From a virus (taxonomy: Duplodnaviria > Heunggongvirae > Uroviricota > Caudoviricetes): a stretch of 44,629 nucleotides of DNA. Within the stretch, counting starts at the first letter, position 1, and each line of letters starts with the position of its first letter. The stretch lies in IMG/VR virus record IMGVR_UViG_2609460219_000007; one strand, given 5' to 3'. The notes beneath the pieces are model-generated. The model had not been told where the DNA came from. It did not search any database and saw only the letters and a program-made list of their open reading frames with translations. A program made the translations under genes and the position numbers. This document shows positions 1,659-11,151 of the stretch, piece by piece.

Positions 1659-4130
1659 TTAAGAATCAGCCTGACTCGGGATCAGTTTTTGCCAGATAGC
1701 TGAAACGTATTTTGCCTGGTAACGGGCGTCATCAAGTGCATTATGGCGCTCACCTTCGAATGGAATAGCCGTTCTGGCATCGAAGTCTATGGCTTTCCCC
1801 AGCTCAACGATTGTGCGTACATCGCGATCGTTGTAGTAACGCCACGGGCAGGGGATCCCCTGCCGTTCGTATGAACGGCGCAAAATCGTGTTGTCGAAGT
1901 TGGCTCCATTTCCCCAGACATGAACAAAAAATTCACCGGAGTTTTCGTCGATAAATTCCCGCAATTGTAACAGTGCATCATCTAACGGGATTTCATCGGT
2001 CATAATGGCAGATTGCGCTTCGCGTGATTGTTTAAGCCACCATTTAATGGTGTCCCGATCAATGACTCCGCCAGCAGTTTCCAGATCGATAGTCTTACTA
2101 AATTCCGGTCCCATATCTCCGGTTTGCGGATCGAAAAATATTGCACCTATTGAGATAATCGGGGCATCGGGATTTTTTCCCATGGTTTCAAGGTCGATCA
2201 TCAGATGAATCCCCGCTCTGCTGGTGGATGTGAGATTATGATGACCGTTTGCCTTAATTAAGGGATCTGACGCCTCGCCAGTTTCACTATCGCTGGCATG
2301 ATGCTGATTGCCGCCAGTGTTCTCCTTGTGCTGATGCGCAGTGCCTTCCATTTCCTCCGGATCATTTTCCTGAACTTCANGCTGATTCTCTCCATCGAAT
2401 ATTTCCTGGTATGTTGCGTCACCCATCACCGCACCACAATCANGGCAGTTGCCGCCACCGCTCTGACCGCAGGCGGTGCAGATCTTTTCCGGTTCCTGTT
2501 GCACTACTGGTTCAGGTTGTTTCGTTTCTGGCTCGTTTTGTTGCGTATTTGGGCTGTTTTGTTCCGCTTTCTGGTCGTTCTGTTCCGTTTCTTGCTGGTT
2601 CTGGTTCACAGAATCGCGGGTCTGGATCCCCTTAATCCATTTCGGATCATTCGGGTCGCTAATCCCTTCAACAAATTCACCACGTGATACTGCAAGCAGT
2701 TCATCGGCGTCAGGCTGGCTGATATTGGCTGCCTGCATAATTTTGTTTACTTCGTCAGCGGTAACTTTTACTGACCCTGGTTGTGCGGTCGTGTCAGATG
2801 CACCAGTATTTTGTTGTGAACCTGAGTATGTACCGTTTTTGCGGGCGAAATATTCTTCTTTCGTGATTTCAGTAGCCCCAGCAGACAGCGCCTTATCCAG
2901 ACCAGAAAGTTTATTTGCGCGACCGTATTTTTCGCCATCCTTGTCGGTGAAGAGGAAGTAGAACGGCCCCTCACGTTCTACAGATGGTTCGACTTCCACT
3001 TTGCATTCGGTTTTTTCGTTGTCTGGAATTGCCGTTTCCACTGCATCAGTTTCTGGTACTGGCGACGAGAGAGTATCAGTTGCGCTCTGATTTGTTCCTT
3101 CATCTTCAAACACGCCCTTTGTAGTCAGGTATTCAGTAATGTATTTGTTCAGTGCCACAGGGTCTTTGTGAATGTCGATCGGACGTTCACGGACAAGGCC
3201 AAAAATAGTCTGGCGGTCGTAGCGAAGGGCATCAGGCTGTTTGCGCATTGATGCCGAGATACGCTTCCAGTCTTCGCGGTCGTTGTCGATAACTTCATTT
3301 TTTGCCCAGCGATGGATGCTGCCGTCAATGTTTCCGGCATCCACATCACCAGGCCAGAGAGCGTAGGCCAGTTCGTCATCCAGTGTTTTCCATGTCTGCT
3401 TGTATTCGCGATGAATGGCAGCAATGACCGGGTTGATTTTTCCTGTTGAATTTTCAGTGTGCTGTTGATTGGCTCTGGCGCGGGCGAGATCAACAACAGA
3501 CGTGTATTTTCCGGCTTCCTTGCGTTCACCTTCGCGACGTTTTTTCCAGATGCGCATCTCTGCCTGAATTTCGGGCCATTTGGCACCAGGCTTACATTTA
3601 TGCTTAACCCACCCGATGGCATGCAGCTTAAGCTCCGGATACATAGCGTTAACTTCTGGCATTTTCATCAACGCTTCAACGATATGGCCGTCGAATGTTG
3701 CCATGTCTTCCTGCAACAATTCCTGTGCGCTAATCACCATATCAACAGTGATGTTTTCACATGTGTCGAACTTAACCATGACAGCGTTCTGTACTTCAGG
3801 GGCTAGGTTGTCAAAAGTGACGTTCATCGGATCGGATTCAGTCTCGACCGGGACAAAGGAAGCAGACGCCTCATCCCAGCGGTTTTCCTGCATATATTCA
3901 GCATCCCAGGAATCGAGGGCAGGGCGGGGTATACCGGGTTTATCCTCGCAAACAAGAAATTTATAAGCGCAGTCCTGAGCAGCCGGATAATGTTCCAGGA
4001 ATTGCCAGTGAAATTTTGCGCGGGCGCGACGTTCATCACCGGCTTCAATGGCAGTGGCTACAGCGACGGCACCTTCTTCCTTTATTGCCTGTTCGTCCGG
4101 AATGGCGGCGCAAATAAAGACTTTACTCAT
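1659..4130 (-). CDS. Prophage exonuclease; C-terminal DEDDh (DnaQ-like) 3'-5' exonuclease domain, long N-terminal region
   Basis: 823-aa ORF; C-terminus carries Exo I (MIDLETMG), Exo II (WGNGANFDNTIL) and Exo III (HNALDDARYQAKY) motifs; central Q/E/N/P-rich low-complexity linker and a Cys cluster (CTACGQSGGGNC.DCG); sits in the exo position after xis. Confidence 0.75.
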   Translation of the reverse strand: MSKVFICAAIPDEQAIKEEGAVAVATAIEAGDERRARAKFHWQFLEHYPAAQDCAYKFLVCEDKPGIPRPALDSWDAEYMQENRWDEASASFVPVETESDPMNVTFDNLAPEVQNAVMVKFDTCENITVDMVISAQELLQEDMATFDGHIVEALMKMPEVNAMYPELKLHAIGWVKHKCKPGAKWPEIQAEMRIWKKRREGERKEAGKYTSVVDLARARANQQHTENSTGKINPVIAAIHREYKQTWKTLDDELAYALWPGDVDAGNIDGSIHRWAKNEVIDNDREDWKRISASMRKQPDALRYDRQTIFGLVRERPIDIHKDPVALNKYITEYLTTKGVFEDEGTNQSATDTLSSPVPETDAVETAIPDNEKTECKVEVEPSVEREGPFYFLFTDKDGEKYGRANKLSGLDKALSAGATEITKEEYFARKNGTYSGSQQNTGASDTTAQPGSVKVTADEVNKIMQAANISQPDADELLAVSRGEFVEGISDPNDPKWIKGIQTRDSVNQNQQETEQNDQKAEQNSPNTQQNEPETKQPEPVVQQEPEKICTACGQSGGGNCXDCGAVMGDATYQEIFDGENQXEVQENDPEEMEGTAHQHKENTGGNQHHASDSETGEASDPLIKANGHHNLTSTSRAGIHLMIDLETMGKNPDAPIISIGAIFFDPQTGDMGPEFSKTIDLETAGGVIDRDTIKWWLKQSREAQSAIMTDEIPLDDALLQLREFIDENSGEFFVHVWGNGANFDNTILRRSYERQGIPCPWRYYNDRDVRTIVELGKAIDFDARTAIPFEGERHNALDDARYQAKYVSAIWQKLIPSQADS

Positions 4131-4222
4131 TTTGTTTTACCTCATTACAGATTTAAGGGTGAACAAATCCCTGCCATTGCTGGCATATAAGAATGAAATC
4201 GGATGTTTATTACGGAACTGTT

Positions 4223-4414
4223 TTAAAGACCTGCCGGGATTTCGTTATTATCCTGGTGAATAACTTTATCGACCGGGTAACAGTTACCGGGAATTTTCTG
4301 TTCGGTTGCTGCAGTCATACACTCCTGCATTGTCCTGTGAACACTGACTGCAATATCAACTGGCTCTCCGGAAACAAGAAAAACTGTCAGAACAAGCGCA
4401 AATGCTGAATTCAT
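4223..4414 (-). CDS. ydfD: Small N-terminally hydrophobic protein, YdfD-like by position and length (63 aa)
   Basis: Starts at MNSAFALVLTVFLVSG... with ATG overlapping the dicB stop; synteny dicF-dicB-ydfD as in K-12 Qin; identity to YdfD not verified by search. Confidence 0.5.
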   Translation of the reverse strand: MNSAFALVLTVFLVSGEPVDIAVSVHRTMQECMTAATEQKIPGNCYPVDKVIHQDNNEIPAGL

Positions 4415-8859: not shown

Positions 8860-10194
8860 TTATGATACCGATAAAAACTTTTTTGTAATTTCTGCTGCCG
8901 TTTTCTCCATGCTGGGATATACAGTGCTTTCGGATATATTAAGCTGTGCCAGCTCTTCCAGAATTTTATTTTTGTTCGCTATCTCCACTCTGTTAAGAGG
9001 AAACTCAGCATCTGTTTCCGGTAAAATGGGATCAAGTCCGAACAGAAGAAAAGCTCCTGCCTGAGATTGTATGCGTTCATTATTTATTTTTGCCTTAAGG
9101 AAAACAACTTTCTTTAAGTCATCAGGGATTATTCTGTTTCTGAAATATGATTTTTCATTCTGTATAAGGTCTGCAAGTTTATCAGTGAGTTCAGGTAACT
9201 CCATACTACCTTTTCTGGCATCAATGGAAGACAATTTTTCCAACTCTTCGTAAGATAAAAGTGATAAGTTTGCTATACAGCTCACTGTGTCTGAGTCGAA
9301 ATATTTAATTTTCTTTCTGTTTGTTGAAAACGCAATCACCTGTCCGTTTTCATCGGGGTTCGAACAGCAAGCAAAATATAATGCTATCAGTGGGTTAGAT
9401 GTAATGTCTAAGAGTCTTGTAGGCAAGCCATAATGCTGCATGCGGACAAGTTTATCAATCGTAAATTTATCCTCCTTAAATTCATTTGGTCTTGCGCTGA
9501 GTATTTCACGTACTAAATCAGATTCTGAAGCAAGATGCCTGTACGTCCCGTTTTGATTTTTTCTGTAAAGAGAGGGGACAAGCTCATATGAGCTTTTAGA
9601 GTGTCCACGATAGAAGGTAATGAGACCATCACGAAAGTTTTTCTTAATGAAATTAAGATAATCTATAATATTCTCGACTACTGGGTATGTTTGTTTTTTT
9701 AATTTGATTGTACCTTTCAGATGGCTATTTTTTTTGTTTAAACCAAGTAATTCCAGAACAATATTCAAATCCTTATTTTTTACTGCCCAATGTGTACGAC
9801 TTAACCCGAAAGATCCTAGTCCTAGGGTTTCTTTATATAATGTCGTTTGGGGATTCGTTATTTCTCCAAAATCATGATTAATCTTGAAAGAAAATAAAAT
9901 ATCGCCACCATCTTTACGTAAATTTCTTATTTCCCCAAGCCTGATCCTGATGTACTTGTTTGTATCATATTCATCATCTTTTGTATAAATTTCGGTCATG
10001 AACAACACCGGTAGCTTGGCGAGTACTCTTAAGGTATCGGGTCTTATTGGTGTTAATTTTCTGTAAATATTGCTTGGGGTGCCTTCCAGCATGCGGGACA
10101 TCGAGAAGCTTTCCTTGCCTTCTTTAAGCTCAGGGTCCATACACGGCCAGCGGTCAAAAACGTCCGGTTCTCCGGCCATGATTAAGCTAAACAT
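8860..10194 (-). CDS. FRG-domain protein with uncharacterised N-terminal domain (candidate defence/abortive-infection gene)
   Basis: 444-aa ORF with strong RBS (AGGAGA, 5-nt spacer, ATG); central motifs ...ITFYRGHSKSSYELVPSLYR... and ...MQHYGLPTRLLDITSNPLIALYFAC... match the FRG domain family as I recall it; the gene is visibly AT-rich relative to its flanks. Confidence 0.75.
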   Translation of the reverse strand: MFSLIMAGEPDVFDRWPCMDPELKEGKESFSMSRMLEGTPSNIYRKLTPIRPDTLRVLAKLPVLFMTEIYTKDDEYDTNKYIRIRLGEIRNLRKDGGDILFSFKINHDFGEITNPQTTLYKETLGLGSFGLSRTHWAVKNKDLNIVLELLGLNKKNSHLKGTIKLKKQTYPVVENIIDYLNFIKKNFRDGLITFYRGHSKSSYELVPSLYRKNQNGTYRHLASESDLVREILSARPNEFKEDKFTIDKLVRMQHYGLPTRLLDITSNPLIALYFACCSNPDENGQVIAFSTNRKKIKYFDSDTVSCIANLSLLSYEELEKLSSIDARKGSMELPELTDKLADLIQNEKSYFRNRIIPDDLKKVVFLKAKINNERIQSQAGAFLLFGLDPILPETDAEFPLNRVEIANKNKILEELAQLNISESTVYPSMEKTAAEITKKFLSVS

Positions 10195-10694
10195 CGCAAT
10201 CTCCTAAATTTACTTACTAAAGTCAGTGTATTTTTATCATGTTGCTTCATTGTGTATGAAAGTAACATTGGTTGTCCATGCTCGTATGCCTCTCATAATT
10301 CACAAATTTGCGAATATTTTTTATAAAAATTCAAAACTGATAGGGTGACACAATCAAAATTCACAAAGTGAACCTGCTTCTAATGTGGTTACGGTACGAT
10401 CATGTGGGCAATTTCCATTGCTGAAAACTCCGGGATCAACCATGATGTATGAGCTGTAGTATGAAGTCTCTTGCTATCCGGTTAAGTAAATGTCTGCTTC
10501 TCACTCAAAGCGGACTAGAAGGTTAGCTTGCGTCGGACTTGGCGTATTTAAAGAAGTGCTGGTGGTAACTGGTTGTTGTGTTCCATTTCTACAAAACAAA
10601 ATCACAGAAACTATACCCAATAGTTATATTGAATCAATGATGAGACAGCCTCATATTTATCAGAACTGGTGTACGTCCAATACAGGAGGTTGTC

Positions 10695-10784
10695 GTGCTG
10701 GTTCTCAAATGTGCGCTAGCTATTGCGGCTGTAATGGCAATTTATTGTCTTGCTGTTGTTCTTACGGATCGCCTTTCTGATTGA
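10695..10784 (+). CDS. Candidate 29-aa hydrophobic peptide (Hok-like transmembrane segment or type I toxin-like)
   Basis: GTG start 5 nt after a perfect AGGAGG (10684-10689); product (M)LVLKCALAIAAVMAIYCLAVVLTDRLSD is almost entirely a TM helix; about 210 bp upstream of hok. Confidence 0.3.
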   Translation: MLVLKCALAIAAVMAIYCLAVVLTDRLSD

Positions 10785-10995
10785 TTTTATATTGGCGAGG
10801 TGACGGGAGTTAAGTAGAATTGCTGCGGGTGCTTGAGGCTATCTGCCTCAGGCATGAACACCAACGGCAGATAGAGAAAAGCCCCAGTTAACATTACGCG
10901 TCCTGCAAGACGCTTAACATTAATCTGAGGCCAATTTCATGCTAGACATATGTAGGTTAGCCTCTTACGTGCCGAAAGGCAAGGAGAAGCAGGCT

Positions 10996-11151
10996 ATGAA
11001 GCAGCAAAAGGCGATGTTAATCGNCCTGATCGTCATCTGTTTAACCGTCATAGTGACGGCACTGGTAACGAGGAAAGACCTCTGCGAGGTACGAATCCGA
11101 ACCGGCCAGACGGAGGTCGCTGTCTTCACAGCTTACGAACCTGAGGAGTAA
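10996..11151 (+). CDS. hokD: Hok/Gef family type I toxin (HokD/RelF-like)
   Basis: 51-aa product MKQQKAMLI.LIVICLTVIVTALVTRKDLCEVRIRTGQTEVAVFTAYEPEE matches recalled HokD; AAGGAG RBS; in-frame upstream extension (MLDICRLAS...) in the ORF track is probably not translated. Confidence 0.85.
   Translation: MKQQKAMLIXLIVICLTVIVTALVTRKDLCEVRIRTGQTEVAVFTAYEPEE

Follow-up and report, generated by a model that had tools for sequence, protein, structure and literature searches.

A 29-codon frame under purifying selection next to hok in lambdoid prophages of Escherichia and Shigella predicts a small single-pass membrane peptide

The stretch of DNA analysed here in full (44,629 nucleotides, IMG/VR record IMGVR_UViG_2609460219_000007; hereafter the window) is a Qin-type lambdoid prophage of E. 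coli. Its genes run in the order dicB, ydfA, repressor and cro-like genes, a YdaT-family gene, a DUF977 gene and, on the minus strand, an FRG-domain gene (8860-10194). The FRG-domain gene is followed by about 630 unannotated bases and then by hokD, rem, ydfU and a Q-type antiterminator gene. The hok locus of the window is complete, with a promoter, a full-length match to the leader model and a coding sequence nested in mok. The window carries 32 ambiguous bases (N), one of which, at position 11024, falls in codon 10 of hok. Between the FRG-domain gene and hok, in the early-right region, lies a 29-codon frame with the same orientation as cro, the replication genes, hok and Q. The stop codon of this frame stands 8 nt before the -35 hexamer of the hok promoter, and a gap of 43 nt separates it from the start of the hok leader model. 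No terminator between the small frame and hok was found in a scan of the window. The features of the region are collected in Table 1.

Table 1. Positions in the window of the small gene, its predicted signals and the neighbouring hok locus
Feature	Position	Strand	Remarks
Overlapping 96-aa Cys-rich ORF	10490..10780	+	Spurious: pN/pS 0.97, length varies
-35-like hexamer TTGAAT, predicted promoter	10629..10634	+	17 nt upstream of CATATT
-10-like hexamer CATATT, predicted promoter	10652..10657	+	Conserved position amid variable flanks
Predicted leader of ~30 nt	10664..10694	+	Conserved GTRTACGTC motif; Shine-Dalgarno AGGAGG at 10684-10689
29-codon small gene	10695..10784	+	GTG start, TGA stop; encodes MLVLKCALAIAAVMAIYCLAVVLTDRLSD, predicted single-pass membrane peptide
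13 conserved nt after the stop codon	10785..10797	+	Right-hand end of the module; overlaps the hok -35
hok promoter TTGGCG-17-TAGAAT	10792..10820	+	Promoter scan; 7 nt before the Rfam-inferred 5' end of hok mRNA
hok mRNA leader (mok/Sok target region)	10827..11001	+	Rfam RF01794, 114 bits, E = 9e-27, full-length match
hok coding sequence (annotated hokD), neighbour	10996..11151	+	Inside mok, 10939..11151

The sequence around the Shine-Dalgarno and the start codon reads caggAGGAGGttgtcGTGctg, and the longer stretch of the window that spans the frame reads ...ACAGGAGGTTGTCGTGCTG... As the first-pass annotation of this DNA had described, the AGGAGG is separated by a 5-nt spacer (10690-10694) from a GTG at 10695, which opens a hydrophobic frame of 29 codons closed by a TGA at 10782-10784. 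The product, (M)LVLKCALAIAAVMAIYCLAVVLTDRLSD, has a Kyte-Doolittle GRAVY of 1.72 overall and of 2.57 for residues 1-23. This hydropathy fits one transmembrane helix followed by the polar tail TDRLSD, the architecture that had been proposed from the letters of the window. The combination of Shine-Dalgarno and start codon is by itself just mildly beyond chance: an AGGAGG followed after 4-8 nt by a start codon and an open reading frame of at least 25 codons occurs five times in the window, as against 1.5 +/- 1.2 times in shuffles, and the other four cases head open reading frames of 140-675 codons. We take the frame to be real because of the comparative evidence, namely the retention of frame, start, Shine-Dalgarno and length together with an excess of synonymous changes, and not because of the pattern itself.

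The comparative sample consists of 137 homologous loci from E. coli genomes, phages, IMG/VR prophages, a Shigella chromosome, E. albertii and plasmids of Shigella and EIEC, found in part by searches with alignments and with a 40-residue in-frame extension of the 29-mer. These loci resolve into 33 distinct haplotypes of 87 nt and 21 distinct peptides. Substitutions were counted as changes along a minimum spanning tree. The small-gene frame has 47 synonymous and 42 non-synonymous changes where the share of sites predicts about 27% synonymous (binomial p = 3.6e-7), counts that are not fully independent because a few divergent lineages supply much of the variation; 46 of the 89 changes fall on the third codon position. 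The corresponding counts are 20 synonymous and 65 non-synonymous in the frame at offset +1, and 17 and 68 in the frame at offset +2, which is that of the 96-aa ORF. The summed pN/pS, calculated from a subset of ten divergent copies, is 0.33 for the small-gene frame, 0.60 for offset +1 and 0.97 for offset +2. Pairwise omega in the small-gene frame lies between 0.10 and 0.5 in most of the divergent pairs, and the replacements seen in the peptide are conservative (A/V/I/T, D/E/N and L/F).

The signals that delimit the frame are retained along with its codons. The frame opens with GTG in 135 loci and with ATG in two, both of them copies on the invasion plasmid pINV, while the stop codon is TGA in 131 loci, TAA in one and lost through an 11-nt deletion in five loci of a single lineage. 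Apart from this stop-loss lineage the length of 29 codons is constant across the homologous loci, and the GGAG core of the Shine-Dalgarno is retained in all distinct sequences but one. Purifying selection thus acts on the small frame, whose start, stop and ribosome-binding site are all conserved. The deletion in the stop-loss lineage (L003 and L096-L099) lies at the equivalent of window positions 10781-10795; it lengthens the product to 35 residues and puts the frame up against the hok -35 region.

The two other frames, including that of the overlapping Cys-rich ORF, look neutral. The frame of this ORF varies between 11 and 154 codons in length among the 137 loci, and the 96-aa form occurs in 14 of them. 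Both its pN/pS and its unstable length bear out the earlier impression that the ORF is spurious.

Of 5426 complete E. coli genomes, 1739 contain at least 80% of the stretch 10600-10830. Among laboratory strains, the small gene is present in E. coli C and in E. coli B REL606, where it occupies about 1,620,064-1,619,975 on the minus strand of NC_012967.1. All 32 protein clusters that we found are from Escherichia, including E. albertii, and the Shigella copies come from searches at the DNA level. The small-peptide family is young and narrow.

In 116 of the 124 loci with enough downstream sequence, hok follows directly after the small gene. It is absent from the remaining eight, which belong to three lineages and keep the frame intact. 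The first is a Rac-type prophage (L004/L093 and L100-103), in which the terminator of a convergent DUF1971 gene comes right after the frame and the cargo is QueH. The second is a copy on the chromosome of Shigella flexneri (L007). The third is the invasion plasmid pINV of Shigella and EIEC, represented by 135 plasmid records at 60-80% peptide identity. The pINV copy is 78% identical in DNA to window positions 10593-10879 and has an ATG start and an intact 29-codon frame (MLVLKGTLAIAAVMTIYCLIVVLMERFSD), followed by a decayed hok promoter and just the first ~50 nt of the hok leader, likewise decayed. The converse arrangement also occurs. K-12 (L094) has no small gene, and its homology to the window begins at 10981, just before the hok start codon, because relBE has replaced everything upstream. 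In O157:H7 (L095, at about 1470-1510) the small gene is reduced to its final ~10 codons (..VVLMGRLSF and the stop codon), beside a different cargo. Since the frame occurs without hok in three lineages and hok occurs without the frame in K-12 and O157, the two are separable neighbours, and the small gene is genetically independent of hok.

On pINV the small gene lies ~290 nt upstream of icsP, and this arrangement suggests that the icsP locus may have come from the hok slot of a lambdoid prophage. In the pWR100 locus of S. flexneri M90T (L091), the small-gene/hok remnant occupies positions 2900-3190 and the protease gene icsP (sopA) lies directly downstream at 3381-4328; the mapped transcription start of icsP follows the small gene at a distance of ~200-290 nt.

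On its other side the small gene borders a highly variable cargo slot, so that it sits between this slot and the hok/sok locus. Among 123 loci, 39 unrelated kinds of sequence occupy the interval from -700 to -300. The cargo of the window is the FRG-domain protein on the minus strand, which matches the PADLOC candidate defence family PDC-S15 with E = 7e-99. Elsewhere (L002, L003, L093, L095 and L094) the slot holds DUF4145, SIR2, QueH and alpha/beta hydrolase genes, and relBE in K-12.

The smallest block common to all lineages spans ~10625-10797 (~170 nt) and has variable DNA on both sides. Its right-hand end is the conserved segment after the stop codon, at which the homology of the hok-less copies L004 and L007 stops. 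Towards its left-hand end, 136 of the 137 loci have the hexamer CATATT 42-45 nt ahead of the start codon (43 nt in 129). TTGAAT, TTGAAG or TTGAGT is kept in most divergent copies despite a variable spacer and is lost in some, for instance in the L053 type. The conserved pattern gives a weak indication of a sigma-70 promoter with a predicted start near 10664 and a predicted leader of ~30 nt. This predicted promoter matches 8 of 12 consensus positions and falls below the threshold of the promoter scan.

Two further observations concern the DNA upstream of the start codon. The block 10497-10624 (~130 nt) is conserved in the majority of copies linked to hok, as well as in the one on the S. flexneri chromosome, and is replaced in other lineages; it holds no conserved ORF and no Rfam match, and a minus-strand promoter-like sequence, TTGATT-16-TATAGT (10637->10610), points into it. 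In the type represented by L117 and BL21(DE3), a deletion has removed the predicted promoter and joined a shortened DUF977 gene to the small-gene leader at TATACGTC. The BL21(DE3) variant (L140) lies at about 1591485-1591560 of NC_012971.2, where the annotated DUF977 coding sequence ends within the small gene in another frame and the numbering of locus tags skips ECD_RS08060.

The published map of transcription starts in S. flexneri M90T contains no start on either strand of pWR100 between 90726 and 91318, an interval that includes the pINV copy at 90908-90997 (PMC7132871 table S3). The map therefore gives the pINV copy neither a start at its predicted promoter nor an antisense one (PMC7132871). 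The nearby starts classed as 'novel transcript' on pWR100 (NZ_CP037924.1), at 91318 (-) and 91397 (+), are ~320-400 nt upstream of the pINV small gene (PMC7132871); the one at 91318 points towards the small gene and icsP. In the prophages, the co-orientation of the small gene with the early operon and the lack of a terminator before hok make read-through on induction at least as likely as an own promoter. The hokW of phage Sp5, which occupies the same slot, is made on mitomycin C treatment in a RecA-dependent manner (PMC8621323). With no terminator between the two genes, the small-gene transcript probably continues into hok.

Four other explanations of the frame were weighed. The one that survives best holds that it encodes a new type I toxin, a peptide that depolarises or permeabilises the inner membrane and is checked by an antisense or trans-acting RNA. 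Much about the peptide agrees with this. The frame predicts the small hydrophobic membrane peptide typical of such systems, a helix-forming chain of 29 residues (GRAVY 2.57 over 1-23) with a short polar tail that is usually left unannotated, and it is carried on mobile elements beside a proven toxin family. A promoter-like site on the minus strand, TTAACT-18-TAAAAT (10813->10784), would yield a transcript complementary to the frame over its full length. This is the sole promoter-like site that answers the call of the first-pass annotation for an antisense promoter and RNA. Its -10 is not conserved (TAAAAT, TGAAAT or TGTAAT, the key A at position 2 often being G), its -35 is missing from the hok-less copies, and the M90T map lists no start antisense to the pINV copy (PMC7132871). 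The antisense strand also shows no RNA structure beyond that of shuffles (folding z = 0.08), and the sense strand folds in no unusual way (z = -1.19). No Rfam match was obtained in 10497-10800 at E <= 1. As the flanks of the ~170-nt module are variable, there is no room for a conserved adjacent sRNA gene.

The other hallmark of type I systems, an mRNA kept inert by structure through a masked site and a long leader, is missing here, the predicted leader being only ~30 nt. RNAalifold did pair ACGUCCAAUACAGGAGG in the Shine-Dalgarno region with CCUUUCUGAUUGAU at the 3' end of the frame (CUUUCUG, 95% of cells paired), which would be in keeping with a type I system. The pairing comes without compensatory changes and does not exceed column shuffles, and the energies of a masking duplex between leader and body equal those of dinucleotide shuffles; long-range masking of the ribosome-binding site was therefore rejected as unsupported. 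The Shine-Dalgarno bases have a mean pairing probability of 0.5-0.8, which is little altered by removing the 3' end.

Comparison with known type I toxins leads in the same direction. The peptide resembles TisB, ZorO, DinQ, ShoB, Ibs and Ldr in its length range (19-35 residues), in its single hydrophobic helix and in the ease with which annotation programs overlook it. In those toxins a long structured leader has to be processed, and the gene for an sRNA antitoxin lies next door. The small gene differs from them in its short predicted leader, in its open and perfect Shine-Dalgarno, in yielding neither an sRNA gene nor an antisense promoter that is conserved, and in sequence: no significant similarity was detected between the peptide and TisB, ZorO, ShoB, DinQ, LdrD or IbsC. 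We consider a type I toxin unlikely, though an antitoxin that acts in trans may exist.

Less probable still is that the frame serves hok, either as a regulatory upstream frame or as a 5' extension, so that passage through it affects how the hok promoter works or how a longer transcript folds, the peptide itself being irrelevant. The proximity of the stop codon to the hok -35, the lack of a terminator between them and the prevalence of hok as the next gene speak for such a role. Selection acts on the amino-acid sequence, however, and not just on the openness of the frame. The frame is moreover intact in the three lineages that have no hok downstream, in one of which a terminator follows directly, and hok works without the small gene in plasmid R1, K-12 and O157, which is in part established knowledge. 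The first-pass annotation had named one simpler version of this, in which the region is nothing but the leader of hok mRNA. The Rfam model begins downstream of the frame, and because the frame ends 43 nt ahead of hok mRNA it is not part of the mok/Sok leader.

It is equally improbable that there is no gene here, and that a chance ORF lies in DNA conserved for another reason, such as an upstream element of the hok promoter, an H-NS nucleation site or the recombination flank of a hot spot. The small-gene region is AT-rich (41% G+C as against 47% for the window), it forms the conserved right flank of a hyper-variable slot, and the M90T map has no start for the pINV copy (PMC7132871). A conserved non-coding element of this kind is at odds with the excess of third-position and synonymous changes, which is specific to the small-gene frame, and with the persistence of Shine-Dalgarno, start, stop and length at 78% nucleotide identity. 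The two switches of delimiting codons, GTG to ATG and TGA to TAA, preserve their sense, and wherever else in the window a suitably spaced perfect AGGAGG precedes an ORF of 25 codons or more, that ORF is a long one.

That the frame is a decayed second copy of hok, reduced to its N-terminal half, as the first-pass annotation had suggested in proposing a truncated gene or the remnant of a tandem duplication, is scarcely credible: the frame adjoins hok and IYCLAVVLT loosely resembles VICLTVIVT, but Smith-Waterman scores are not significant against the Hok of the window (P = 0.085) and equal shuffles against R1 Hok and HokB (0.5-0.7), the small-gene module and the hok locus share no DNA similarity (best matches 9 nt), Pfam Hok_Gef (PF01848) gives no match even at E <= 10, and purifying selection with a fixed stop codon is unlike a relic.

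No family was found for the peptide in Pfam, NCBIfam, PHROG or PADLOC. Exact or near-exact copies in databases are named 'membrane protein', 'hypothetical protein' or, in REL606 and BL21, 'conserved hypothetical protein'. PGAP names one variant WP_000960667.1, and in most genomes the frame is left unannotated. In the literature searched, neither the peptide sequence nor WP_000960667 appears in any paper, and the papers on Hok diversity, on hokW and on the discovery of small membrane proteins mention no frame upstream of hok.

Like the Hok/Gef toxins, the product is small, has an N-terminal transmembrane helix with a predicted N-in/C-out topology and is found on prophages and plasmids; the gene adjoins a complete hok/mok/sok locus in the same orientation. 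It differs from them in having 29 residues rather than ~50 and no periplasmic Cys-containing domain, in lacking an overlapping mok frame, a Sok-type antisense RNA and a 5'-3' fold-back (fbi/tac) element, in showing no sequence similarity and in occurring also without hok. KdpF (29 aa), MgtS, AcrZ and PmrR are small inner-membrane proteins that are not toxic and modulate larger proteins of the membrane. The peptide is like them in size, in having one helix and ordinary signals for expression, and in being subject to purifying selection. Unlike those it is prophage-borne and not part of a host operon, and it has neither homology to them nor a known partner. A conserved face of the helix, which would hint at a partner, was not significant when sought as a helical moment of variability (P = 0.22). 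Finally, like phage holins and antiholins, superinfection-exclusion proteins and lambdoid morons, it is a small phage-borne membrane protein in an accessory and defence cargo slot, but it differs from holins and antiholins in lying in the early region and not in a lysis cassette, and in belonging to no PHROG family. As for the own promoter and terminator of morons, the small gene has the conserved but weak promoter-like TTGAAT-17-CATATT, and a terminator follows only in the hok-less Rac-type copies. The small gene abuts hok without being a relative of Hok. It joins the known class of small membrane peptides borne by prophages, and no new kind of system needs to be proposed for it.

With a probability of roughly three in four, we read the frame as a real gene, predicted to be translated into a 29-residue single-pass inner-membrane peptide, that is an accessory of Qin/Rac-type lambdoid prophages in Escherichia and Shigella. 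Translation would start at the GTG at 10695 from a canonical and apparently unmasked AGGAGG. Transcription may come from the weak sigma-70-type promoter TTGAAT-17-CATATT, from read-through of the early operon on induction, or from both. In the predicted topology the N terminus (K5) would be inside and the acidic tail (D/E-R/H-L-S-D) outside. The gene appears to lack the RNA-level controls found in type I toxin-antitoxin systems and to be unrelated to hok. As a working guess, the peptide may have a membrane-active or partner-modulating role during prophage induction, and its silence in lysogens may be due to transcriptional repression and not to antisense RNA.

A more specific form of this guess is improbable, though less so than a type I toxin. 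Under it, lambdoid prophages would possess a hitherto unrecognised membrane toxin or lysis-timing factor that has no antitoxin, being silenced only by prophage repression or H-NS, made early after induction together with Hok and depolarising in its effect; alternatively the peptide could be a partner that modulates Hok. Were either true, the copy upstream of icsP might matter for the physiology of the virulence plasmid.

If the reading as an accessory gene for a membrane peptide is correct, annotation has mostly skipped a gene that is carried by roughly one complete E. coli genome in three and by essentially all sampled invasion plasmids of Shigella and EIEC. If the peptide is made, the gene is the conserved border, on the right, of a cargo hot spot that contains candidate defence genes. 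In lambdoid prophages Hok has already been reported to advance phage release. The peptide, if made, would add a membrane-active or modulating player to their hok region and would be a candidate behind unexplained phenotypes of hok-region deletions.
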